Assembly (NCBI GenBank): GCA_017556885.1
Contig: JAFYLV010000157.1
Location: forward strand, 1 to 36,568
Length of the DNA stretch: 36,568 bases
Direction of reading: 5' to 3'
Source: Clostridia bacterium
Lineage (GTDB): Bacteria; Bacillota; Clostridia; Oscillospirales; QAMX01
This document shows, piece after piece, positions 15,015-29,344 of this stretch. The translations under genes were made by a program, and so were the position numbers. The notes under the pieces were generated by a model. The model was given only the letters and a program-made list of their open reading frames with translations, was not told the DNA's origin and made no database searches. Every line of letters begins with the position of its first letter. Within the stretch, counting starts at the first letter, position 1.

Positions 15015-15716
15015 TTAAATATTCAGCCGGTTCAAATTCTGCAGAGGCAGCCGGTCGGCATACAGATGGCCGTTGTCGGACAGGCAGATGCACTTGGGGG
15101 CGCAGATCTCCTCACCCTCATAATTGATGATGGTGACACCGGTATGGTTGATGCCGAAAGCACGCCAGAAAAACTGCGGCGGCTGCCAGAGCAGGTGGGA
15201 AAGCCATGCGCAGCCAAAACCCGCATGGCAGAAGCAGGCTACCCGTCCCGCATCCGGTCCGATGCGTCTGTAGACGCCGCCCTCCCGCTCCAGACCGAGT
15301 CTGCGGAAGAAATCGTCCGATTCCGCCACCATGGCATCGTACCCTTCCTTGACCGGGAGTCCGGCAAAAACCGGCGCTTCGTACCACCGGGCACGGGGCA
15401 AATCATTTTCTTCCCGGTACAGTTCCTCCCGCAGGGCATCCTTGATCCAGTAGCGCTTGCCGTCCGGCATATCGATCCCAAACCGCTTCATGGCAAGATC
15501 TTCATCCATAAACGGCTCTATTTGGGCGTCGATCCCCATCAGATCGCAGGTGGGCTGCGCCGTCATACGGGCGCGTCCGCGGGGAGAGGTGAATATCCGA
15601 TCCAATCCGTGAACGGAGAGCCGCTTCGCCACCGCCTCCGCCTGCAAGCGTCCCTTTTGGGTCAAAGAATCGGGATTATACACAGGATCTCCGTGTCGAA
15701 TAATATAAAGAAGCAT
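15015..15716 (-). CDS. Histidine phosphatase (phosphoglycerate mutase-like) family protein, paralog 1
   Basis: The 233-aa product has the N-terminal RHG motif (MLLYIIRHGDPVY) and a second conserved His in FCHAGFG. AAGAGGATGA RBS lies upstream. It is clearly paralogous to 16721..17425. Confidence 0.85.
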   Translation of the reverse strand: MLLYIIRHGDPVYNPDSLTQKGRLQAEAVAKRLSVHGLDRIFTSPRGRARMTAQPTCDLMGIDAQIEPFMDEDLAMKRFGIDMPDGKRYWIKDALREELYREENDLPRARWYEAPVFAGLPVKEGYDAMVAESDDFFRRLGLEREGGVYRRIGPDAGRVACFCHAGFGCAWLSHLLWQPPQFFWRAFGINHTGVTIINYEGEEICAPKCICLSDNGHLYADRLPLQNLNRLNI

Positions 15717-15748
15717 AACGGATCATCCTCTTTTCTTTATTTCTTTTT

Positions 15749-15777
15749 ATTTTACCATATTTTCTCCGTTTTCACAA
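15749..15777 (-). promoter_or_regulatory. Candidate promoter of histidine phosphatase paralog 1
   Basis: The minus strand reads TTGTGA-17 nt-TAAAAT (preceded by TGg), about 30 nt upstream of the RBS. Confidence 0.45.
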
Positions 15778-15780
15778 GTG

Positions 15781-15816
15781 AAAAGACCGCGGATCCTCTG
15801 CAGATCCGCGGTCTTT
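15781..15816 (-). terminator. Intrinsic terminator after the ThiT-like gene
   Basis: The sequence is AAAGACCGCGGATC-ctctgca-GATCCGCGGTCTTT, a perfect 14-bp stem. T-runs follow on both strands. It lies 14 nt after the TGA at 15830. Confidence 0.75.
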
Positions 15817-15829
15817 GTTTCTCAATCTT

Positions 15830-16465
15830 TCAGTTCTTGGCAAGTATCTGGTTTCGCAGCGGTGCAATTCCCATAACAACGGCCGCACCGATGGCCGTCA
15901 AAATGATCTCCGGCACCATATACAGGCCGTTATAGACCGCAGAATAGATGACCGCAAGCCCTGTGCCGGAAAAGCTCTGGAGGATAGATGCACCGAAGGA
16001 GTTGTTCATCACATCGGTAAAGAACCATTCGGCATAGCCGCTCCAGAGAATAACACCGGAGGCGAAATGGCACACGAACCGGAGCAGCGCCGCAAAGGCT
16101 GCGCCGACCGCCACGGCCGCGCCGTGCTTACCGATACGGCCGCGGAAGATGCCCGCAAGACCCAGCACCGCCAAGGCGACGAGATAATCCAGCAGCGCCA
16201 TCAGCACGGTGCTCAACGGGTCCAGTCCGGCAAAGGCCTGGCTTCCCACCGCGCCGAACACGCCCTGAAGCACGCCGTAGACGGCGCCGCAGCAAAGTCC
16301 CCACCGGGTGCCGTACATATAGGCGATGATGGCGACGGGCACCATGCTGAAGGCCGTGACGGCACCGCCGTAGAGAAACTGCGGGGAGATTTTGACAAAG
16401 GACAGGACAACTGCGAGGGCCACCAGCATTCCGCTGGTGACAAGACGTTTGGTGGATGCGTTCAT
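15830..16465 (-). CDS. thiT: ECF-transporter substrate-specific (S) component, ThiT-like thiamine or thiamine-precursor transporter
   Basis: The 211-aa protein has about 6 TM segments and is rich in G, A and aromatic residues, as S components typically are. It lies directly downstream of a TPP riboswitch. AAAAGGAGAG RBS is present. No ecfA/ecfT genes are adjacent, so it would use a shared module. Substrate specificity (thiamine versus HMP or thiazole) is inferred from the riboswitch only. Confidence 0.75.
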   Translation of the reverse strand: MNASTKRLVTSGMLVALAVVLSFVKISPQFLYGGAVTAFSMVPVAIIAYMYGTRWGLCCGAVYGVLQGVFGAVGSQAFAGLDPLSTVLMALLDYLVALAVLGLAGIFRGRIGKHGAAVAVGAAFAALLRFVCHFASGVILWSGYAEWFFTDVMNNSFGASILQSFSGTGLAVIYSAVYNGLYMVPEIILTAIGAAVVMGIAPLRNQILAKN

Positions 16466-16544: not shown

Positions 16545-16565
16545 GATTCAAAAGGCATCGAATTT

Positions 16566-16664
16566 CGTGCTCCCTACGCTGGCATTATCCATATCAGGTT
16601 AAGGGTTCGGTCCCACGTTCCGGGACCATCTCAGCCGGCAGCTTTGCGCCAGCACCCCTGACTT
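16566..16664 (-). promoter_or_regulatory. TPP (THI-box) riboswitch aptamer
   Basis: The minus-strand RNA reads ...CAGGGGUGCUGGCGCAAAGCUGCCGGCUGAGAUGGUCCCGGAACGUGGGACCGAACCCUUAACCUGAUAUGGAUAAUGCCAGCGUAGGGAGCAC.... It contains the invariant THI-element blocks GGGGUGC, CUGAGA, ACCCUU-AACCUGAU-UGGAUAAUGCCAGCG and AGGGA. Confidence 0.9.
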
Positions 16665-16681
16665 ATTCACTTGACGGGCTG

Positions 16682-16710
16682 ATTATAGCAAACTCTACCT
16701 GCCTTGTCAA
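16682..16710 (-). promoter_or_regulatory. Consensus sigma-A promoter driving the TPP riboswitch and thiT
   Basis: The minus strand reads TTGACA-17 nt (aggcaggtagagtttgc)-TATAAT, with both hexamers matching consensus exactly. It lies about 20 nt upstream of the aptamer. Confidence 0.75.
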
Positions 16711-17618: not shown

Positions 17619-17648
17619 TTGACAAACCTCCGGGGCATGGCGTATAAT
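17619..17648 (+). promoter_or_regulatory. Candidate sigma-A promoter of the arginine operon
   Basis: TTGACA-18 nt-TATAAT, with both hexamers matching consensus, lies about 55 nt upstream of the argG ATG. Confidence 0.6.
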
Positions 17649-17660
17649 TTAGGCACACTT

Positions 17661-17674
17661 TGAATATTTATTCA
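17661..17674. promoter_or_regulatory. ARG box (ArgR/AhrC operator) overlapping the predicted transcription start
   Basis: TGAATA-TT-TATTCA is a perfect palindrome matching the core of the ARG-box consensus TNTGAATWWWWATTCANW. It begins 12 nt downstream of the -10 hexamer, in front of an arginine biosynthesis operon. Confidence 0.6.
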
Positions 17675-17701
17675 GCCGCTTTTGCGGCAAAGGAGTAAGA
17701 T

Positions 17702-18928
<1,227 letters not shown>

Positions 18929-18987: not shown

Positions 18988-19914
18988 ATGACAAAGATTT
19001 TTATTGACGGAAAGGAAGGCACCACCGGCCTTCGCATCTTTGAGCGCATTGGAAACCGTTCCGGCATCGAACTTCTTACCCTTCCGGAGGAGAAGCGCAA
19101 GGACACCGAAAGCCGCCGGGAGATGCTCAACCTCTGCGACATTGCTTTCCTGTGCCTGCCCGATGCCGCCGCCCGCGAGGCCGTCAGCCTCATCGAAAAC
19201 CCCGCGGTCCGCGTTATCGACACCTCCACCGCCCACCGCACCGCCGCAGGCTGGGCCTACGGCTTCCCCGAGCTGACGCCCGACGGCGCCGCAAAGGTGG
19301 CCTCTGCCGCCCGTGTTGCCGTTCCCGGCTGCCATGCCAGCGGTTTCCTCGCGGTGACGGCGCCCCTCATTTCTGCCGGCATTCTGAATCCCAAAACCGC
19401 CCTCACCGCCGTTTCCATCACCGGCTACAGCGGTGGCGGCAAGAAGATGATCGCCGCCTATGAGGCAGAAGACCGCCCTGCCCTTTACGGCGCACCTCGC
19501 CTTTACGGCCTCTCCCAGGAGCACAAGCACCTGCCGGAGATGGTGGCCCGTTCCGGCCTTGCACAGGTGCCCTTCTTCCTGCCCTATGTGGCAGACTTCT
19601 ACAGCGGCATGCACGTTTCCGTTCCTCTGCCTGCCGAAAGCCTCTCCGGCAGCATTGACGATGTCCGCGCCTGCCTTGCGGCAGCCTACAAGGGACCCAT
19701 CGTCTCCTTTGCGGAGAATGCCGGCGAGGACGGCTTTGTCAGCGCCCTCGGCATGTCCGGCAAGGACTCCATGGAGGTCTTTGTTTCCGGCAACTCCGAC
19801 CGTATCGTTGTCGGTGCCCGTTATGACAATCTCGGCAAGGGTGCCTCCGGCGCCGCCATCCAGTGTCTCAATCTTATGCTCGGTCTTGATCCGACCGAGG
19901 GACTCGAACTGTAA
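18988..19914 (+). CDS. argC: N-acetyl-gamma-glutamyl-phosphate reductase (short, type-2 ArgC)
   Basis: MTKIFIDGKEGTTGLRI..., the catalytic Cys context VAVPGCHASG, and DNLGKGASGAAIQ near the C-terminus. The start is ATG 18988 with GGAG 7 nt upstream. The upstream extension in the ORF track was rejected. Confidence 0.9.
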   Translation: MTKIFIDGKEGTTGLRIFERIGNRSGIELLTLPEEKRKDTESRREMLNLCDIAFLCLPDAAAREAVSLIENPAVRVIDTSTAHRTAAGWAYGFPELTPDGAAKVASAARVAVPGCHASGFLAVTAPLISAGILNPKTALTAVSITGYSGGGKKMIAAYEAEDRPALYGAPRLYGLSQEHKHLPEMVARSGLAQVPFFLPYVADFYSGMHVSVPLPAESLSGSIDDVRACLAAAYKGPIVSFAENAGEDGFVSALGMSGKDSMEVFVSGNSDRIVVGARYDNLGKGASGAAIQCLNLMLGLDPTEGLEL

Positions 19915-19929
19915 GGAATTTAAAACGCT

Positions 19930-21156
19930 ATGATTACTCAGATCCCCGGCGGTGTCACTGCCGCCACCGGCTTTCAGGCCTCCGGCATCCATTGCGGCAT
20001 CCGCAAGAACCGTACCAAGCGCGATATCGCCCTCATCCTGAGCGATGTTCCTGCCTCTGCCGCAGCCGTCTACACCCAGAACCTCGTCAAGGGTGCTCCC
20101 ATCGCCGTCACCCGCCGTCACATTGCCGACGGTATCGCCCGTGCTGTCATCTGCAACTCCGGCAATGCCAACACCTGCAACGCAAACGGCGAAGAGGTCG
20201 CAGAGGAAATGTGCCGTATGACCGGCGAGATCCTCGGCATCGATGCCGGTGACGTTATCGTCGCCTCCACCGGTGTTATCGGCCAGCCCCTCAATCTGGA
20301 GCCCATCCAAAACGGTCTGCCTGCCCTCGCAGAGGCCCTCGGCTACGATGCCGAGAGCGGAACCAATGCCGCAGAGGCCATCATGACCACCGATACCGTC
20401 CGCAAGGAGATCGCCGTGGAGTTCACCCTCGGCGGAAAGACCTGCCGCATGGGCGGCATCGCCAAGGGCAGCGGTATGATCCATCCCAACATGGCCACCA
20501 TGCTGGTCTTTGTGACCACCGATGCCGCCATCGCCCCCGCTCTGCTGCAGAAGGCCCTCTCCTCCGACGTTGTGGATTCCTTCAACATGGTCAGCGTGGA
20601 CGGAGACACCTCCACCAACGATATGCTCTCCATCATGGCCAACGGCATGGCCGGAAATGAGACCGTTACGGATGAGAACAGCGCAGATTACGCCACCTTC
20701 CGTGAGGCGCTCGCCCACGTTACCCATTATCTCTGCCGCATGATCGCCGGCGACGGCGAGGGTGCCACAAAGCTGCTGGTCTGCACCGCCTCCGGCGCCA
20801 AGGATAAGCAGACTGCCCGTACCGTGGCAAAATCCGTCATCTGCTCCAGTCTCCTGAAGGCTGCCATGTTCGGCGCAGATGCCAACTGGGGCCGTGTGCT
20901 TTGCGCCATCGGCTATAGCGGTGCGGACGTGGATGTCATGCGCGTGGATGTGGACTTCCGTTCCGCCGCAGGCACCGTTTCCGTCTGCCGCAACGGCGCA
21001 GGCATCCCCTTCTCCGAGGAGATCGCCAAGACCGTCCTCTCCGAAAAGGAGATCGACATTCTGATCGGTCTCAACTCCGGCGATGCCGAAGCCACCGCCT
21101 GGGGCTGCGATCTGACCTACGATTACGTTAAGATCAACGGCGACTACCGCACCTGA
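19930..21156 (+). CDS. argJ: Bifunctional glutamate N-acetyltransferase / amino-acid acetyltransferase
   Basis: The 408-aa product contains the autoprocessing site context GSGMIHPNMATMLVFVTTDA and the C-terminal CDLTYDYVKINGDYRT. Confidence 0.95.
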   Translation: MITQIPGGVTAATGFQASGIHCGIRKNRTKRDIALILSDVPASAAAVYTQNLVKGAPIAVTRRHIADGIARAVICNSGNANTCNANGEEVAEEMCRMTGEILGIDAGDVIVASTGVIGQPLNLEPIQNGLPALAEALGYDAESGTNAAEAIMTTDTVRKEIAVEFTLGGKTCRMGGIAKGSGMIHPNMATMLVFVTTDAAIAPALLQKALSSDVVDSFNMVSVDGDTSTNDMLSIMANGMAGNETVTDENSADYATFREALAHVTHYLCRMIAGDGEGATKLLVCTASGAKDKQTARTVAKSVICSSLLKAAMFGADANWGRVLCAIGYSGADVDVMRVDVDFRSAAGTVSVCRNGAGIPFSEEIAKTVLSEKEIDILIGLNSGDAEATAWGCDLTYDYVKINGDYRT

Positions 21157-21185: not shown

Positions 21186-22037
21186 ATGGATATGAACATT
21201 GAGCTTCGGGCGGAGATCCTCAGCCGCGCCCTGCCCTACATTCAGAAATACAACGGTAAGATCCTTGTGATCAAATACGGCGGCAACGCCATGATCAATG
21301 AGGATCTGAAGCAGCAGGTCATGGAGGATCTGGTACTGCTGCATCTGGTGGGTGTCAAAGTGGTTCTGGTCCACGGCTGCGGCCCGGAGATCACCGACAT
21401 GCTCAAGCGTGTCGGCAAGGAGACCCTCTTTGTGGACGGCCTGCGTGTCACCGATGCCGAAACGGCAGAGATCGTGCAGATGGTCCTCGCCGGCAAGATC
21501 AACAAGAATCTTGTCAACCTCATCCAGAACACCGGCGGCCGCGCCATCGGTCTCTGCGGTGCCGACGGACATCTCATCGAGGCTGAGATGCGGGATGCGC
21601 GCCTCGGCTTCGTGGGCGAGATCACAAACATCAACACCCAGCCCATTCTGGATGTGCTGGAAAAGGGTTACATCCCCGTCGTTTCCACCGTGGGTGTGGA
21701 CGGCGAGGGCAACGTCTACAATATCAATGCCGATACCGCCGCCGCCCGTATCGCCGGCGAGCTCAAGGCGGAGGCTCTCATCTCCATGACCGACATCCGC
21801 GGCCTTCTCCGGGACAAGGACGATCCCGACAGCCTCATCCCCACCGTGCGCGTCAGCGACGCTCCCGCCCTGGTGGCCGACGGCATCATCTCCGGCGGCA
21901 TGATCCCCAAGGTAGACTGCTGCATCGAGGCCATCCGCCGCGGCGTCAACCGTGTCTTCATCATCGACGGCCGCGTACCCCACGCCATCCTCATCGAAAC
22001 GCTGACGGATGAGGGTATCGGCACCATGTTTTATTGA
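21186..22037 (+). CDS. argB: Acetylglutamate kinase
   Basis: The 283-aa product carries LVIKYGGNAM, VLVHGCGP and NINADTAA motifs of the amino-acid kinase family. Confidence 0.95.
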   Translation: MDMNIELRAEILSRALPYIQKYNGKILVIKYGGNAMINEDLKQQVMEDLVLLHLVGVKVVLVHGCGPEITDMLKRVGKETLFVDGLRVTDAETAEIVQMVLAGKINKNLVNLIQNTGGRAIGLCGADGHLIEAEMRDARLGFVGEITNINTQPILDVLEKGYIPVVSTVGVDGEGNVYNINADTAAARIAGELKAEALISMTDIRGLLRDKDDPDSLIPTVRVSDAPALVADGIISGGMIPKVDCCIEAIRRGVNRVFIIDGRVPHAILIETLTDEGIGTMFY

Positions 22038-22064: not shown

Positions 22065-23231
22065 ATGACCACCAAGCAACTGGATGCACAGTACATCATG
22101 CCCACCTACGCCCGCTTTGACCTGGAGATCGTCCGGGGCAGCGGCGCGGAGCTTTACGATAACGAGGGCAAGCGTTACATCGATCTCGGCAGCGGCATCG
22201 CCGTCAACACCTTTGGTGCTGCGGACCCCGATTGGGTCTCCGCCGTCACCGAGCAGGCCGGCAAGCTTGCTCACATCTCCAACCTCTACTACACCGGCCC
22301 CTGCGCGGAGCTTGCCGCCGCCCTCTGCGAGCGCACCGGCATGAAGAAGGTCTTCTTCTCCAACTCCGGCGCCGAATCCAACGAGTGCATGATCAAGGGT
22401 GCCCGCCGCCACGCGCTTCTCCACCGCGGCGAAGGCCACTCCACCATCATCACCCTCCGCCAGTCCTTCCACGGCCGCACGGTGACCACCCTGGCCGCCA
22501 CCGGACAGGATCACTTCCACACCGAGTTCGGCCCCTTCACCGAAGGCTTTGTTTACGCCACCGCCGGTGACCTCGACGAAATGAAGGCCCTGGTCGCGGA
22601 ACACGAGCCCGCCGGCATCATGATCGAGCTGGTACAGGGCGAAGGCGGCGTCATCGCGCTGGATCCCGATTACGTCTGCGCCCTCCGCAAGCTATGTGAT
22701 GAGACGGGCACGCTGCTTCTCATCGACGAGGTGCAGACGGGCAACGGCCGCACCGGCTCTCTGTATGCCTGGCAGTCCTACGGCATCACCCCGGACATCT
22801 TCTCCACCGCAAAGGGTCTCGCCGGAGGTCTTCCTTTGGGCGCCACCCTCTTCTCCGAGAAGACCGAGGACGCCCTCATCGCCGGCACCCACGGCTCCAC
22901 CTTCGGCGGCAACCCCATCTGCTGCGCCGGTGCCCTCTCGGTCATCCGGCGGCTGGATGACGAATTCCTCGCCGGGGTCCGCGCCCGGGCGGAATACATC
23001 CGGCAGGAGCTTTCCGGCGCAAAGGGCGTTGCGGATATCTCCGGTCTCGGCCTGATGATCGGCATCGAACCCGAGGGCAAGACCGCGAAGGAGATCATCG
23101 CCGCCTGCATGGAAAAGGGCGTGCTGGTGCTCTCCGCCAAATCCCGCGTACGACTGCTGCCCCCCCTGAATATTGACGAAAAGCTGCTGGCTGAGGCCAT
23201 CGGCATCCTGAAGGAGGTCCTTGCACAATGA
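22065..23231 (+). CDS. argD: Acetylornithine aminotransferase (class III PLP aminotransferase)
   Basis: The 388-aa product has SNSGAESNE, LIDEVQTG.GRTG and the PLP-lysine context DIFSTAKGLAGGLPLGA. Confidence 0.9.
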   Translation: MTTKQLDAQYIMPTYARFDLEIVRGSGAELYDNEGKRYIDLGSGIAVNTFGAADPDWVSAVTEQAGKLAHISNLYYTGPCAELAAALCERTGMKKVFFSNSGAESNECMIKGARRHALLHRGEGHSTIITLRQSFHGRTVTTLAATGQDHFHTEFGPFTEGFVYATAGDLDEMKALVAEHEPAGIMIELVQGEGGVIALDPDYVCALRKLCDETGTLLLIDEVQTGNGRTGSLYAWQSYGITPDIFSTAKGLAGGLPLGATLFSEKTEDALIAGTHGSTFGGNPICCAGALSVIRRLDDEFLAGVRARAEYIRQELSGAKGVADISGLGLMIGIEPEGKTAKEIIAACMEKGVLVLSAKSRVRLLPPLNIDEKLLAEAIGILKEVLAQ

Positions 23232-24136
23232 AACATCTTCTGAAGCTCGGCGATCTCACCCCGGAAGAGATCCTTGAGATCCTCAATCTCGCCGATCAGC
23301 TCAAATATGAGAAAAAGCACGGCATTGCCCATCATCATCTCGCGGGCCAGACTCTGGGTATGATCTTCCAGAAGTCCTCCACCCGTACCCGTGTTTCCTT
23401 TGAGGTCGGTATGTATGACCTCGGCGGCTCTGCCCTTTTCCTTTCCTCCCATGATCTGCAGATCGGCCGCGGCGAGCCCGTGCAGGACACTGCCCGCGTT
23501 CTTTCCCGTTACTTAAACGGTATCATGATCCGCACCTTTGCCCAGCAGGAGGTTGAGGATCTTGCCCGTTACGGTTCCATTCCCGTCATCAACGGTCTGA
23601 CCGACTACTGTCATCCCTGCCAGGTCCTTGCAGACCTTCTGACCATCCGCGAGCATAAGAAAGTTCTCGCCGGCAACAAGCTTTGCTTTGTCGGTGATGG
23701 CAACAATATGGCAAACTCCCTCATCGTTGGCGGTATCAAGGCCGGCATGGAAGTGTCCGTTGCCTGTCCCAAGGGTTATGAGCCCGATGCGGACATCATG
23801 TCCTGGGCTTCCGCCACCGGACGCTTCACCTGCACCGACGATGTTCTCGCCGCTGCCAGCGGTGCCGACGTTCTTTATACCGACGTTTGGGCATCCATGG
23901 GCCAGGAGGACGAGGCTGCACACCGCCAGAAGATCTTCGCAGGCTATCAGATCAACGATGCCGTTATGGCCGCCGCAAATCCCGGCGCCATGGTCCAGCA
24001 TTGCCTGCCCGCCCATCGCGGTGAGGAGATCACCAACGAGGTCTTTGAGGCCCATGCCGATGAGATCTTTGACGAAGCTGAAAACCGCCTGCATGTGCAG
24101 AAGGCCGTCATGGTTCTCTGCATGGGTAAAAAATAA
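23228..24136 (+). CDS. argF: Ornithine carbamoyltransferase
   Basis: The 302-aa product has the carbamoyl-phosphate motif SSTRTRVSFE, the ornithine motifs DVWASMG and HCLPAHRGEE. Its ATG overlaps the argD stop (ATGA). Confidence 0.9.
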   Translation: MKHLLKLGDLTPEEILEILNLADQLKYEKKHGIAHHHLAGQTLGMIFQKSSTRTRVSFEVGMYDLGGSALFLSSHDLQIGRGEPVQDTARVLSRYLNGIMIRTFAQQEVEDLARYGSIPVINGLTDYCHPCQVLADLLTIREHKKVLAGNKLCFVGDGNNMANSLIVGGIKAGMEVSVACPKGYEPDADIMSWASATGRFTCTDDVLAAASGADVLYTDVWASMGQEDEAAHRQKIFAGYQINDAVMAAANPGAMVQHCLPAHRGEEITNEVFEAHADEIFDEAENRLHVQKAVMVLCMGKK

Positions 24137-24205
24137 AATATTTCGCCTATCGCCCCGCACGAAACCGTGTGGGGCGGCGGCATATCTTACTATAACGGAG
24201 GCAAT

Positions 24206-25264
24206 ATGAAAAAAGGTTACTTAGTACTGGCAGACGGCACCGTTTACGAAGGCATCCGCTTCGGTGCGGACGCTTCCGCCGCGGGCGAGCTGGTCTTCAC
24301 CACTGCCGTTGTCGGTTACGGTGAAACCCTCACTGATCCCGCGTATTTTGGCCAGATCGTTCTGCAAACCTATCCCATGATCGGAAACTACGGCATCATT
24401 GAGGAGGATCTCACCGCAAAGCCCGCTCTTTCCGCGTACATCGTCCGGGAATACTGCGAAACCCCTTCCAACTTCCGCTGCGATATCACCATTGACGAAT
24501 ATCTCCGCCGCGAAGGTATCCCCGGTCTCGCCGGCATCGATACCCGCGCCGTTACCCGTCACATCCGCGAAGCCGGTGTTATGAACGCCATGCTCTGCGA
24601 TGAAGTTCCTGCCGATCTCTCTTCTCTCGCCGCGAAGGATTACGCCGCCGGCGGAGTGGAGAAGCTCACCTGCAAGGCAGCTTCCGAGATCCCTGCAGAG
24701 GGTGAGGAGATCGCCCACGCCGCGGTCCTCGATCTCGGCGCGGCGGATGCCGTCATCGCTCAGCTCACCGCCAAGGGCGTGCGCGTCACCCGCTTCCCCG
24801 CCTTCTCCTCTGCCGAGGAGATCCTCGCGGCAAAGCCCGACGGTCTGGTGCTCTCCGCCGGCCCGGGTGATCCCGCCGCGCTGGAGCTTCCCGCCCTGAA
24901 GGATCTCATCTACCGGCTGCCCATCTTCGGCGTGGGGCTTGGCCATCAGGTGCTTGCCATCGCCTTCGGCGGCAAGACCTTTAAGCTCAAGTACGGTCAC
25001 CGCGGCGGAAACCAGCCCGTGACCGAGGTGGGCGGCAACACCCACATCACCGCCCAGAATCACGGCTACGCTGTGGATGCCGAAAGCCTTTCCGGCATCG
25101 CCAACGTGATCTTTACCAACGCAAACGACGGCACCTGCGAGGGTCTGGAATATCCCAACCACCGCGCCTTCTCCCTGCAGTTTGCACCGGAGACCTGCCG
25201 CGTTCCCCGCGATCTCACAAATCTTTACGACCGCTTTATCAACGAAATGAAGGGAGTCCGCTAA
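24206..25264 (+). CDS. carA: Carbamoyl-phosphate synthase small subunit homolog with a degenerate glutaminase catalytic triad
   Basis: The 352-aa product starts MKKGYLVLADGTVYEG... with the N-terminal CPSase small-chain domain, followed by a class I GATase-like domain (SAGPGDP, GLGHQ, GGNQPV, AQNHGYAV). The nucleophile Cys position reads Gly (FGVGLGHQ) and the catalytic His position reads Ala (LQFAPE). The start is ATG 24206, after ACGGAGG. Confidence 0.9.
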   Translation: MKKGYLVLADGTVYEGIRFGADASAAGELVFTTAVVGYGETLTDPAYFGQIVLQTYPMIGNYGIIEEDLTAKPALSAYIVREYCETPSNFRCDITIDEYLRREGIPGLAGIDTRAVTRHIREAGVMNAMLCDEVPADLSSLAAKDYAAGGVEKLTCKAASEIPAEGEEIAHAAVLDLGAADAVIAQLTAKGVRVTRFPAFSSAEEILAAKPDGLVLSAGPGDPAALELPALKDLIYRLPIFGVGLGHQVLAIAFGGKTFKLKYGHRGGNQPVTEVGGNTHITAQNHGYAVDAESLSGIANVIFTNANDGTCEGLEYPNHRAFSLQFAPETCRVPRDLTNLYDRFINEMKGVR

Positions 25265-28200
25265 TGCCTCTGCAGAAAAACATCCGTAAAGTCCTCGTCA
25301 TCGGTTCCGGCCCCATCGTCATCGGCCAGGCTGCAGAGTTTGACTATGCCGGCACCCAGGCCTGCGCCATTCTGAAAAAAGAAGGCCTCAACGTCGTTCT
25401 CGTCAACTCCACCCCCGCCACCATCATGACCGACTCGGCCTGTGCCTACGAGATCTATCTCGAGCCCCTCACCGAGACCACCCTCAAGCGTATTATCGAA
25501 AAAGAAAAACCCGACAGCATCCTTGCCGGCCTCGGCGGTCAGACCGGTCTGACCCTCGCCATGAAGCTGGACAAGGAGGGCTATCTGGACCGCATGGGCG
25601 TCAAGCTTCTCGGCACCAACGCCGAGGCTATTGACCGTGCCGAGGACCGCCAGCTCTTTAAGGACACCATGGAGTCCATCGACCAGCCCTGCATCCCCTC
25701 CGATATTGCCAACGATCTGCCCACCGCGCTGGAGATCGCCGCCCGCATCGGCTACCCCGTCATCGTCCGTCCCGCCTTCACCCTCGGCGGCTCCGGCGGC
25801 GGTGTTGCCTATAGCGAGGAAGAGATGCGTGTCATCGCCCAGACGGGTCTTGACCGCTCCCCCATCACTCAGATCCTTGTCGAGAAGTACATTTTCGGCT
25901 GGAAAGAGGTCGAGTTTGAGACCATGCGCGACAGCGCGGGCAATGCCATCGCCGTCTGCAGCATGGAGAACGTGGATGCCGTCGGCGTTCACACCGGCGA
26001 CAGCGTCGTCGTCGCCCCGGCGCTCACCCTCTCCCCCAAGGAGTACGAGATGCTCCGCGCCGCCTCTCTGAAGATCATTGATGCCCTCGGCATCGTCGGC
26101 GGCTGCAACTGCCAGTTCGCCCTCAATCCCGAGAGCTTTGAGTATGCCGTCATCGAGGTCAACCCCCGCGTTTCCCGCTCCTCCGCCCTGGCAAGTAAGG
26201 CCACCGGCTACCCCATTGCGAAGATCACCACCAAGGTCGCTCTCGGCTACACCCTGCCCGAGATCAAGAACGATATCACCGGTGTCACCTGTGCCTGCTT
26301 TGAGCCCAGCGTTGACTACGTGGTCGTCAAGTTCCCCAAGTGGCCCTTTGACAAGTTTGCCGGCGCAAGCCGTAACCTCGGCACCCAGATGAAGGCCACC
26401 GGTGAGGTCATGTCCATCGCCTCCACCTTCGAGGCTGCTCTCATGAAGGCCGTGCGCGGCTGTGAGATCTCTCTGGACACCCTCAATGCCGCCCCCCTCT
26501 CGGACAAGCCCCTTACCGAGCGCCTTGCCGAGCTCAACGACCGCCGTCTCTTCACCGTCTTTGAGGCGCTGAAGGCCGGTATGTCCATCGACGAGATCCA
26601 CCGCATTACCGCCATCGACGAGTGGTTCCTCTGCAAGATGAAGAACCTCGCCGATTTCGAGGCTCGCATCGCCGGCGGTCTTTCCGACGAGGATTACAAG
26701 CTCGGAAAGAAGCTCGGCTATCCCGATGCCGCCCTTTCCCGCATCTCCGGCCGCAAGGATCTGCCCCATATCCCCTGCGTGTACAAGATGGTCGACACCT
26801 GCGCTGCGGAATTTGATGCCCAGACCCCCTATTTCTACGCCACCTACGATGAGGAATGTGAGGCCGAGCGTTTTGCCGCCTCTCCCAAGCCCCGTATCCT
26901 GGTGCTTGGCTCCGGCCCCATCCGTATCGGACAGGGTATCGAGTTTGACTACTCCTCCGTCCACTGCGTTTGGGCGCTGAAGAAGCTCGGCTATGACGTT
27001 GTTATCGTCAACAACAACCCCGAGACCGTTTCAACCGACTATGACACCTCCGACCGCCTCTACTTCGAGCCGCTGACCAGCGAGGATGTCATGAACATCA
27101 TCGAAAAAGAGCATCCCGAGGGCGTTGTTGTGGCCTTTGGCGGCCAGACCGCCATCAAGCTCACCCAGTTCCTCGACCGCAGCGGCATCCGCATCTTCGG
27201 CACCTCCGCCGAAAGCATCGACGTTGCCGAGGACCGCGAGCGCTTTGATGCGCTGCTGGAGCAGTTCAACATCCGCCGTCCTCAGGGCTGCGGCGTTCTC
27301 ACTATGGACGAGGCCCTCGCCGCGGCCAACCGCCTCGGCTATCCCGTGCTGCTCCGTCCCTCCTACGTCATCGGCGGTCAGAACATGACCATCGCCCGCT
27401 CCGATGAGGATGTGCGCGTCTATATGACCCGTATCCTCGCCGGAAAGATCGAGAACCCCGTGCTGGTCGACAAGTACATGATGGGCACCGAGCTGGAGGT
27501 GGACGTCATCTCCGACGGAAAGGACGTTCTCATCCCCGGTGTCATGGAGCACGTGGAGCGCGCCGGCGTCCACAGCGGTGACTCCATCGCCGTCTATCCT
27601 CCCTACAACATCAACGATAAGATGCTGGAAAAGGTAGTGGATTACTCCACCCGCCTCGCCCTCGCCATGGGCACCCGCGGCCTGGTCAACATCCAGTACC
27701 TCATCTATCACAACGAGCTCTACGTCATCGAGGTCAACCCCCGCGCCTCCCGTACCGTGCCTTACATCAGCAAGGTCACCGGCATCCCCATGGTCGACCT
27801 CGCCGCCCGCGTCATGGTCGGTCAGACCCTCGCAGAGCAGGGCTACGGCACCGGCCTGTACCGCACGCCGCCCTACTACACCGTTAAGGTCCCCGTCTTC
27901 TCCTTTGAGAAGCTGCTGGATGCCAACTCCCGCCTCGGCCCGGAGATGAAGTCCACCGGTGAGGTGCTCGGTATCGGTAAGAACCTCAACGAGGCTCTCT
28001 TCAAGGGTCTCACCGCCGCCGGCAATATCGTTACCACCGCCCAGGCCGCCGACTGCGGCGTCTTCATCTGCGTTGACACCCACGACAGCTACGAGATCGT
28101 CGGCATCGCAAAGAAGTTCTCCGACCTCGGCATGACCCTTTACGTCACTCCCGAGACCAACCGCGCCATCGAAGGCCTCGGCATCGAGACTACCGTCGTT

Positions 28201-29292
28201 CCTGCCCCGCAGGACGATCCCACCGTCTACAATCTCATCGACGAGGGTAAGATCAGCTACATCATCTACACCGGTGCCATCCATGATACCGGCGCGGACG
28301 ACTACATTGAGCTGCACCGCCGCGCGATGCTGCACTCCATCGTCTGCCTGACCTCCCTTGACACTGCAAACGCCCTGGCCGACATCGTCGCAAGCCGCTT
28401 CAACGAGCTCAACACCGAGCTTGTGGACATCAACCACCTGCGCCGTTCCCGTCAGACCCTCGCCTTCTCCAAGATGCAGGGCTCCGGTGACGACTACATC
28501 TTCATCGACAACCGCGACCAGCGCATCACCTGCCCGGAATCCCTCTGCGTCAACCTCTGCCGTCCCCACACCGGTGTCGGTGCCGACGGTATCGCCCTCA
28601 TCGAGAATTCCGACGTGGCCGACTGCCGCATGCGCATCTTCAACACCGACGGCAGCGAGGGCCGCATGGCGGGCAACTGCATCCGCTGCGTGGGCAAGTA
28701 TGTCTACGATAAGGGCATCGTCCGCAAGGAGACCATCACCGTTGAGACCGCGAGCGGCGTGCGTGAGCTGAAGCTCTATACCCGCAACGGTAAGGTCAAC
28801 TACGTTACCGTCTGCATGGGCAAGGCCGATCTCTCCGCCGCAAGCCTGCCCACCACCCTGCCCGGTGACAAGCTCATCGATACCCCCGTCACCGTCGGCG
28901 GCAAGGAATACCGCATCACCTGCGTCTCCGTTGGCAATCCCCACTGCGTCATCTTCTGTGACAACGTGGACCGCGCGGACGTTGCCGGTGTCGGCCCCCT
29001 CTTTGAGAGCGCGCCCTTCTTCCCCGAGCGCATCAACACCGAGTTTATCCGCGTCGTCAACCCGCGCACCATCAAGATGCGCGTCTACGAGCGCGGCAAC
29101 GGCGAAACCCCTGCCTGCGGCACCGGCGCTTGTGCCGCGGTCGTCGCCGCCGTGGAAAACGGCTTCTGCAAGAAGGGCGAGGATATCACCGTCAAGCTGA
29201 CCGGCGGCGACCTGCTGGTCAACTACTCCGACGAGGGCGTCTTCCTCTCCGGCAATGCAAAGCTCGTCTTCGAGGGCTATACCGAGTATTGA
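25264..29292 (+). CDS. carB: Carbamoyl-phosphate synthase large subunit fused in frame to a C-terminal diaminopimelate-epimerase (DapF)-like domain
   Basis: This is a single 1342-aa ORF. Residues 1 to about 1065 form a complete CarB: two ATP-grasp halves (GSGPIVIGQAAEFDYAG and GSGPIRIGQGIEFDYSS), an oligomerisation domain and an MGS-like allosteric domain. Residues from about 1066 to 1342 form a complete DapF fold (FSKMQGSGDDYIFID, FNTDGSE, VSVGNPHCV, INTEF, YERGNGETPACGTGACA). The ATG overlaps the carA stop (TAATG). Confidence 0.9.
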   Translation: MPLQKNIRKVLVIGSGPIVIGQAAEFDYAGTQACAILKKEGLNVVLVNSTPATIMTDSACAYEIYLEPLTETTLKRIIEKEKPDSILAGLGGQTGLTLAMKLDKEGYLDRMGVKLLGTNAEAIDRAEDRQLFKDTMESIDQPCIPSDIANDLPTALEIAARIGYPVIVRPAFTLGGSGGGVAYSEEEMRVIAQTGLDRSPITQILVEKYIFGWKEVEFETMRDSAGNAIAVCSMENVDAVGVHTGDSVVVAPALTLSPKEYEMLRAASLKIIDALGIVGGCNCQFALNPESFEYAVIEVNPRVSRSSALASKATGYPIAKITTKVALGYTLPEIKNDITGVTCACFEPSVDYVVVKFPKWPFDKFAGASRNLGTQMKATGEVMSIASTFEAALMKAVRGCEISLDTLNAAPLSDKPLTERLAELNDRRLFTVFEALKAGMSIDEIHRITAIDEWFLCKMKNLADFEARIAGGLSDEDYKLGKKLGYPDAALSRISGRKDLPHIPCVYKMVDTCAAEFDAQTPYFYATYDEECEAERFAASPKPRILVLGSGPIRIGQGIEFDYSSVHCVWALKKLGYDVVIVNNNPETVSTDYDTSDRLYFEPLTSEDVMNIIEKEHPEGVVVAFGGQTAIKLTQFLDRSGIRIFGTSAESIDVAEDRERFDALLEQFNIRRPQGCGVLTMDEALAAANRLGYPVLLRPSYVIGGQNMTIARSDEDVRVYMTRILAGKIENPVLVDKYMMGTELEVDVISDGKDVLIPGVMEHVERAGVHSGDSIAVYPPYNINDKMLEKVVDYSTRLALAMGTRGLVNIQYLIYHNELYVIEVNPRASRTVPYISKVTGIPMVDLAARVMVGQTLAEQGYGTGLYRTPPYYTVKVPVFSFEKLLDANSRLGPEMKSTGEVLGIGKNLNEALFKGLTAAGNIVTTAQAADCGVFICVDTHDSYEIVGIAKKFSDLGMTLYVTPETNRAIEGLGIETTVVPAPQDDPTVYNLIDEGKISYIIYTGAIHDTGADDYIELHRRAMLHSIVCLTSLDTANALADIVASRFNELNTELVDINHLRRSRQTLAFSKMQGSGDDYIFIDNRDQRITCPESLCVNLCRPHTGVGADGIALIENSDVADCRMRIFNTDGSEGRMAGNCIRCVGKYVYDKGIVRKETITVETASGVRELKLYTRNGKVNYVTVCMGKADLSAASLPTTLPGDKLIDTPVTVGGKEYRITCVSVGNPHCVIFCDNVDRADVAGVGPLFESAPFFPERINTEFIRVVNPRTIKMRVYERGNGETPACGTGACAAVVAAVENGFCKKGEDITVKLTGGDLLVNYSDEGVFLSGNAKLVFEGYTEY

Positions 29293-29310: not shown

Positions 29311-29344
29311 AAAAAGCCGGTGAAGTGATTCACCGGCTTTTTTG
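29311..29344 (+). terminator. Intrinsic terminator of the arginine/CPS operon
   Basis: The sequence is AGCCGGTGAA-gtga-TTCACCGGCT followed by TTTTTTG, located 20 nt after the carB-dapF stop. Confidence 0.85.

Follow-up and report, generated by a model that had tools for sequence, protein, structure and literature searches.

A putatively ammonia-dependent bacterial carbamoyl phosphate synthetase whose small subunit lacks the glutaminase catalytic residues

Introduction

Which nitrogen donor serves a carbamoyl phosphate synthetase (CPS) whose small subunit lacks the glutaminase nucleophile? The question is raised by carA on contig JAFYLV010000157.1, a stretch of 36,568 nucleotides (hereafter, the window) from an uncultured Clostridia bacterium. 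The Cys-His-Glu triad of class I amidotransferases is required for glutamine hydrolysis. In the window CarA, Gly and Ala occupy the positions of the triad Cys and His, and the gene is intact, is under purifying selection and has counterparts in many other lineages. We consider it probable (about 0.7) that the enzyme is an ammonia-dependent CPS unable to hydrolyse glutamine, with CarA kept as a pseudo-enzyme subunit in the manner of CPS I.

All eubacterial CPSs studied so far are described as glutamine-dependent, and an orphan large subunit, CarB2, is treated as the first bacterial exception (PMC8121099). Our full-text literature searches uncover no description of bacterial CarAs that lack the triad.

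Degeneration of the glutaminase site

The gene, its ribosome-binding site and the codons discussed below are as follows (E. coli numbering for the reference positions).

24197..24201, + strand: carA ribosome-binding site, GGAGG, 6 nt upstream of the ATG (read in the sequence)
24206..25264, + strand: carA, 352-aa small subunit of CPS, glutaminase site dead (translation of the open reading frame, profiles, alignment, model)
24341..24343, + strand: Ala46 codon GCG, position of Ser47 (Ser in 125/125 intact homologues)
24743..24745, + strand: Ala180 codon GCG, position of Lys202 (Lys in 125/125 intact homologues)
24857..24859, + strand: Ala218 codon GCC, position of Asn240 (Asn in 120/125 intact homologues)
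24935..24937, + strand: Gly244 codon GGG, position of the nucleophile Cys269 (phmmer alignment and sequence)
25184..25186, + strand: Ala327 codon GCA, position of the catalytic His353 (phmmer alignment and sequence)
25190..25192, + strand: Glu329 codon GAG, triad Glu355 retained (phmmer alignment and sequence)
25202..25204, + strand: Val333 codon GTT, position of Gly359 in the ammonia-tunnel wall (Gly in 125/125 intact homologues)

The protein is identical to MBR6556994.1, from an NCBI metagenome-assembled genome (MAG) labelled 'Clostridia bacterium', and is annotated there as carbamoyl phosphate synthase small subunit. Its two-domain fold (PF00988, 158.9 bits; PF00117, 120 bits) and its scores above the curated cut-offs of NF009475 (364.7 bits, cut-off 221) and TIGR01368 (350 bits, cut-off 307.35) place it in the CarA family, as do its adjacency to carB and its co-expression with carB through a TAATG overlap at 25262-25266. 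The features of a glutamine-hydrolysing small subunit are missing. The triad reads Gly244, Ala327 and Glu329, and of the set Ser47, Lys202, Asn240, Gln273 and Gly359 only the Gln is kept, as Gln248. Judged by its sequence, the window protein is a CarA homologue that fails the defining catalytic features of the glutamine-hydrolysing small subunit.

The columns were assigned by a phmmer search of CarA against PDB chains, in which E. coli CarA matches with an E value of ~1e-69 and both active-site motifs align without gaps. The window segment 'pifgvGlghq' pairs with the Cys269 motif of E. coli, placing Gly244 at Cys269, and 'slqfApet' pairs with 'sfqgHpea', placing Ala327 at His353 and Glu329 at Glu355. 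The initial annotation had proposed these two substitutions, with the Glu kept, from an alignment by eye; the HMMER alignment agrees. The codons GGG and GCA confirm its statement that each substitution lies at least two base changes from any Cys or His codon. Its other sequence statements, including the intact reading frame and the TAATG coupling to carB, are correct as well.

The damage is wider than initially claimed. We aligned 233 homologues with E. coli CarA and compared 125 with an intact triad, which is the criterion that defines this intact set, to 101 without the Cys. Sixteen columns are conserved in the former and scrambled in the latter: H353, K202, E355, P360, S47, E71, I205, G359, N240, F367, Y48, T283, D244, D362, Q273 and E41. 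Several of these are presumably glutamine-site residues, Ser47 and Lys202 among them. In addition to the triad positions, the window CarA has changed Ser47, Lys202, Asn240 and Gly359, as well as Glu71 (Thr70) and Phe367 (Tyr341), the columns of Asn240 and Phe367 being only near-invariant in the intact set (H < 0.5 bit). It retains Gln273, Asn311, His312, Glu355 and Pro360. A mutant of E. coli at the tunnel-wall position, G359F of the small subunit, is available as PDB 1M6V.

Amide nitrogen might still be used if a separate glutaminase supplied it or if CarA had recruited another nucleophile. The initial annotation had named an alternative Cys/His pair in the active site as one finding that would overturn its proposal. 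With Gly at the nucleophile position, comparison of the window CarA with its relatives reveals no newly gained Cys, Ser or His near the site; Cys131, Cys311 and Cys331 are invariant in catalytically intact relatives too. The operon contains no extra amidotransferase gene. Nothing in the window favours this explanation, and the one point in its favour comes from other dead lineages (L055, L078 and L085 of our survey loci), which carry Ser at the Cys position. These Ser-bearing lineages have lost the His, however, and the E. coli C269S mutant (PDB 1C30) is reported to lack glutaminase activity. We regard continued use of amide nitrogen as quite improbable.

An AlphaFold2 model of CarA computed from a 123-sequence alignment has a mean predicted local distance difference test score (pLDDT) of 96.5 and a predicted template modelling score (pTM) of 0.93; an earlier model from a shallow 36-sequence alignment (pLDDT 65) was discarded. 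Superposition of the model on E. coli CarA gives a template modelling (TM) score of 0.90-0.92; against the N-terminal moiety of human CPS1, the TM score is 0.86-0.89. The whole CarA fold is thus predicted to be kept.

Authenticity and selection

Because the source is a MAG, the substitutions could in principle reflect a sequencing, assembly or binning artefact. The 90% cluster of the window CarA has 24 members, from NCBI, JGI, ENA and Logan, and the same substitutions occur in these members and in further clusters, from different samples. Independent NCBI, JGI and ENA assemblies at 82-94% identity read AAGQNHAE at the eight key positions, and the relatives at 94, 89 and 82% have all substitutions in common with the window CarA. 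In P0007, at 60% identity, the triad Cys and His are likewise replaced by Gly and Ala. The 89% relative, locus L001, has an identical gene order and a carB reading frame of identical length (1342 aa). Since independent assemblies carry the same substitutions, an artefact is refuted for practical purposes. The survey of orthologues suggested by the initial annotation therefore finds the substitutions in close relatives and, as described below, in many other lineages.

To quantify selection, we calculated the ratio of nonsynonymous to synonymous substitution rates (dN/dS) by the Nei-Gojobori method. Between the window and L001, carA has a dN/dS of 0.139 (0.080 in the N-terminal domain, 0.172 in the glutamine amidotransferase (GATase) domain), CarB 0.024 and the arg genes 0.03-0.11. 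Between the window and L006, the values are 0.156 for carA and 0.032 for CarB (first 407 codons only). A second pair with dead CarA, L043 and L048, has 0.066 for carA (GATase domain 0.028) and 0.024 for CarB. Ten pairs with intact CarA give 0.08-0.26 for carA and 0.04-0.145 for CarB. Dead CarA is today as constrained as active CarAs, and its dN/dS within the intact range indicates neither a decaying gene nor an error. An ongoing relaxation of constraint on dead CarA was considered and dropped, the ten intact pairs showing that its dN/dS is ordinary. Acceleration is seen only on a branch where a loss occurred (L031 versus L083, GATase domain 0.30).

These values bear on the possibility that carA is a relic decaying towards eventual loss and that CarB works alone, as proposed for CarB2 of Bacteroides. 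Such decay would account for the uneven divergence of the two subunits: the window and L001 are 89.5% identical in CarA and 98.8% identical in CarB, a CarA/CarB divergence ratio of 8.45, whereas the median for intact pairs is 1.71 and none exceeds 5.6. Yet every relative at 60-94% identity has an uninterrupted carA reading frame, the carA dN/dS (0.14-0.16) lies far below 1 and is typical of intact CarAs, the strong ribosome-binding site and the translational coupling are kept, and carA adjoins carB at every dead locus with downstream sequence. We consider a relic very improbable.

The same constraint might signal a new ligand-binding or regulatory role of CarA, for example the sensing of glutamine or another metabolite in order to modulate CarB, in place of a passive scaffold, with ammonia still used by the enzyme. 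The GATase domain of dead CarAs is under selection as strong as that of active ones (0.17 for the window, 0.028 for L043/L048); the window CarA retains Gln273, Asn311, His312 and the GPGDP loop; and even the dead set shows no variation at His312 and Gly241. However, Ser47, Lys202 and Asn240 have become Ala, the first two being glutamine-site residues, and many different residues occupy these positions across dead lineages, which argues against a shared new pocket. We regard a new role of this kind as unlikely, albeit the least unlikely of the alternatives.

Recurrence of CarA without the catalytic Cys

The survey loci come from GTDB species representatives, for which the best 80 of 219 matches were listed. 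Of the 85 related loci compared, 71 have the canonical pattern SNCQNHHE, with an intact triad. The site is degenerate in L006, L043, L048, L083, L055, L078, L085 and L071, and L029 has lost the His alone. L006, from sheep rectum, is the only close species among the loci listed; L043 and L048 are Oscillibacter and Dysosmobacter MAGs. Among the 150 best cluster representatives at 50% identity, about 90 lack the Cys, a share that is inflated by the state of the query itself and by the divergence of these sequences. Their Cys position is mostly Gly and sometimes Asp, Ser, Asn or Ala, and their His position can be almost any residue. As read from these alignments, the set of Cys-less CarAs is clearly large.

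The flanking genes of L043 and L048 are shared with the intact Oscillibacter locus L022, indicating that the loci are positional orthologues and that the loss of the CarA site happened in place. Identity to L022 is 91% for a neighbouring gene, 84% for CarB::DapF (see below) and 70% for CarA. For counting losses, a neighbour-joining tree of CarA was rejected: it lumps many dead sequences, probably through long-branch attraction. We therefore counted on a neighbour-joining tree of CarB (72 taxa), on which Fitch parsimony requires at least seven changes of CarA state. The nearest neighbour on the CarB tree is intact for most dead lineages.

Dead CarA is not confined to arginine operons. It stands in arg operons in the window, L088 and L091, adjoins pyrF in L090, and has neither context in L086, L089, L043 and L083. 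In L090, the orotidine monophosphate decarboxylase gene pyrF (15197..16117) directly follows carA-carB::dapF, an adjacency giving a hint that pyrimidine synthesis may be supplied by a glutaminase-dead CPS.

The CarB::DapF partner

The large subunit is encoded directly downstream.

25264..29292, + strand: carB::dapF, in-frame fusion of CarB (aa 1-1044) and DapF (aa ~1067-1339), its start overlapping the carA stop in TAATG (profiles)
26047..26049, + strand: Glu262 codon GAG, at the position of CarB Gln262 (Gln in 61/61 CarB partners of intact CarA)

The CarB part scores 1402.7 bits against NF003671 and aligns without gaps to E. coli CarB through residue 276. Glu217, Glu219, Cys232, Ala251 and Arg265 are kept across the dead lineages, with the exception of Arg265, which is Ala in L055. 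Cys232 and Ala251 match the conserved ammonia-tunnel gate named in the CPS1 structure paper (PMC4655335).

One CarB position changes together with CarA. Gln262 is replaced in eight of nine dead-CarA lineages; the pattern was noticed in four lineages and upheld in four of five newly examined ones. Gln262 lies three residues from Arg265, a residue of the tunnel wall where the two subunits meet; a tunnel-wall mutant, αP360/αH361/βR265, is reportedly among the work of Raushel and Holden. We read the replacement of Gln262 as the loss of a residue whose role may be confined to the coupling with an active glutaminase. As a general marker of ammonia-using CPSs, Gln262 was rejected: human CPS1 keeps the equivalent Gln, so its replacement does not mark ammonia dependence in general.

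Further CarB changes recur in dead lineages. A31T is found in six of the nine, including the window (Thr31 codon, 25354..25356), and A400C in the window (Cys400 codon, 26461..26463), L043/L048, L083 and L086; others are C283V, C343x and A230x. In a separate comparison, CarB residues 201-300 (25864..26163) score 163 bits against human CPS1 and 127 bits against E. coli CarB.

The DapF part scores 275.7 bits against TIGR00652. It is a complete diaminopimelate epimerase (~28462..29292) with both catalytic Cys motifs. A single carB::dapF reading frame of ~1342-1352 aa is confirmed in about ten loci (the window, L001, L022, L043, L083, L086 and L088-L091), with CarA intact or dead, and carA, carB and dapF are adjacent in nearly all of the 80 best related GTDB loci listed. 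L064, L069 and L071 have a second dapF-like gene nearby. The presence of DapF, an enzyme of cell-wall and lysine synthesis, in an operon with a predicted ArgR operator is odd. Our full-text literature searches likewise give no paper on a CarB-DapF fusion.

Proposed mechanism

With the nucleophile, the general base, other invariant positions and the tunnel-wall glycine all replaced, the window CarA would no longer be able to hydrolyse glutamine. Since CarB keeps its full catalytic machinery, the enzyme would most likely make carbamoyl phosphate from free NH3, bicarbonate and two ATP. The part played by CarA may be non-catalytic, stabilising or shaping CarB. Direct use of NH3 would save the ATP spent on making glutamine, which should pay in the ammonia-rich ruminant gut. 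E. coli CarB alone, CPS mutated at Cys269 and CPS with a blocked tunnel all still make carbamoyl phosphate from NH3 (cited in PMC8121099).

The initial annotation had proposed an ammonia-dependent CPS with CarA as a structural or allosteric pseudo-enzyme, and the parts of this proposal that can be computed (dead site, purifying selection, fold) hold. The demonstrated part comprises the loss of catalytic residues, the conservation of fold and sequence, the recurrence of the loss and the co-variation of CarB; the use of ammonia we infer by analogy with the E. coli Cys269 and tunnel mutants and with CPS I. The suggestion in the initial annotation of an ammonia-rich niche fits the relatives whose source can be identified, which are from ruminant gut samples, the window contig itself being from an uncultured Clostridia MAG.

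Some points weigh against ammonia dependence. The Km of E. coli CPS for NH3 is high, and the proposal assumes an adapted affinity here. We find no obvious change in the CarB active site that would provide it. The Gln262 equivalent is kept in human CPS1, an enzyme that uses ammonia. Finally, constraint on the dead GATase domain within a clade is as strong as on the active domain, which could mean a new function and not just a scaffold.

A broader proposal is tentative, and we would put it somewhat short of even odds: gut and rumen Clostridia of the Oscillospiraceae/Christensenellales type may have made CarAB obligately ammonia-dependent at least seven times, keeping CarA; the enzyme may be the sole CPS in several lineages, serving both pyrimidine and arginine synthesis; and the change of Gln262 may mark a coupling that has become dispensable.

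Relation to known systems

Engineered Cys269 and Gly359 mutants of E. coli are reported to have lost the use of glutamine and kept the use of ammonia. The window protein would be a natural instance of the state that these mutants, C269S (1C30) and G359F (1M6V), represent. The window enzyme resembles E. coli CarAB (PDB 1JDB) in the two-domain CarA fold, the carA-carB order and the CarB domains. It differs in combining changes of the nucleophile, His353, Ser47, Lys202, Asn240 and Gly359, and in the fusion of CarB to DapF.

In human CPS1, Ser294 replaces the nucleophile Cys, the glutaminase-like domain is inactive, and external ammonia enters by a separate path (PMC4655335). The likeness to the window CarA lies in a retained glutaminase-like domain with a replaced nucleophile (Gly244 here, Ser294 in human CPS1). 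Unlike the separate carA and carB reading frames of the window, CPS1 (PDB 5DOT/5DOU) is one fused chain of 1500 residues. CPS1 retains two triad residues, His and Glu, and requires N-acetylglutamate, whereas the window CarA has changed both Cys (to Gly) and His (to Ala); CPS1 also keeps the CarB Gln262 equivalent, which the window has lost. By analogy, the window CPS would work like CPS I without belonging to its family, having two subunits, an independent origin and different substitutions.

The gut bacterium Bacteroides thetaiotaomicron has an orphan CarB2 (BT3866), proposed to make carbamoyl phosphate directly from ammonium when it is plentiful (PMC8121099). CarB2 lacks a small subunit altogether, and the same organism also has a canonical CarAB, whereas the window keeps a conserved carA; the window CPS is thus not of the orphan type, a large subunit without a small partner.

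If ammonia dependence is true, nature would have a second, independent way of making carbamoyl phosphate from ammonium, a CarAB whose glutaminase is dead, which would have arisen many times in gut Clostridia and be convergent on vertebrate CPS I. Under the broader proposal above, the view that all bacterial CPSs are glutamine-dependent would be wrong for a large group of gut anaerobes. Arginine and pyrimidine synthesis in these organisms would depend on the availability of ammonia in the gut. Metabolic reconstructions of gut and rumen microbes would change, dead CarAs being annotated as plain CPS small subunits and passing TIGR01368, a model whose name contains 'glutamine-hydrolyzing'. The dead CarAs would also form a natural series of pseudo-enzymes for the roles of the CPS small subunit besides glutamine hydrolysis, and Gln262 would provide a specific, testable co-varying residue in CarB.

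Operon and regulation

Upstream of carA lie six arginine genes in the same orientation, and the following features can be assigned in addition.

17619..17648, + strand: sigma-70 promoter TTGACA-18-TATAAT before argG (hexamers 12/12 consensus)
17659..17676, no strand assigned: ARG box TTTGAATATTTATTCAGC, an ArgR operator-like palindrome (one mismatch to the ArgR consensus TNTGAATWWWWATTCANW)
17702-18928, + strand: argG
18988-19914, + strand: argC
19930-21156, + strand: argJ
21186-22037, + strand: argB
22065-23231, + strand: argD
23228-24136, + strand: argF
24151..24176, + strand: GC-rich hairpin CGCCCCGCAC-gaaacc-GTGTGGGGCG, without a T run, in the 69-bp argF-carA spacer (read in the sequence)
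29311..29342, no strand assigned: terminator-like hairpin after carB::dapF (scan, minus strand; the plus strand also forms a stem with A and T runs)

The arg genes are assigned from their reading frames, with Pfam labels via the syntenic locus L001. The initial annotation had called this an arginine-operon CPS, and carA and carB do lie inside an arg operon behind a consensus promoter and a putative ARG box. L001 shares the ARG box core TGAATATTTATTCA exactly, and many intact relatives have similar boxes in front of argG, argC, argF or carA. The consensus promoter and the ARG box make arginine control plausible. We predict that argGCJBDF-carA-carB::dapF forms one ArgR-controlled operon, and the window CPS is probably repressed by arginine. 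The argF-carA hairpin might be an element for mRNA processing or stability, or an attenuator.

Bacillus-type Firmicutes have a separate arginine-specific CPS besides the pyrimidine one, and Bacillus CarA keeps the Cys-His-Glu triad. The window resembles the Bacillus arrangement in that carAB sits among the arg genes (argCJBD...F) and the promoter is accompanied by an ArgR/AhrC-type operator. It differs in that argF precedes carA, argG is included and CarB carries DapF.

An Rfam scan of the window finds no PyrR or other known RNA element before carA, its only match being the riboswitch described below, and the 36.6-kb window contains no pyr genes. No assembly occurs twice among the best 80 of 219 loci listed, which is weak evidence on the second, canonical carA that the initial annotation suggested looking for.

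The operon is not arranged in this way in every strain. On a JGI contig (L004, 1..1828), the gene upstream of the same dead CarA (P0002) is a minus-strand gene and not argF, indicating that the operon is rearranged in some strains. Outside the operon, a thiamine pyrophosphate riboswitch (RF00059, 61 bits; 16553..16669, minus strand) lies upstream of a minus-strand energy-coupling factor (ECF)/ThiT-type transporter gene (15830..16465) and is accompanied by a consensus promoter at 16710..16682.

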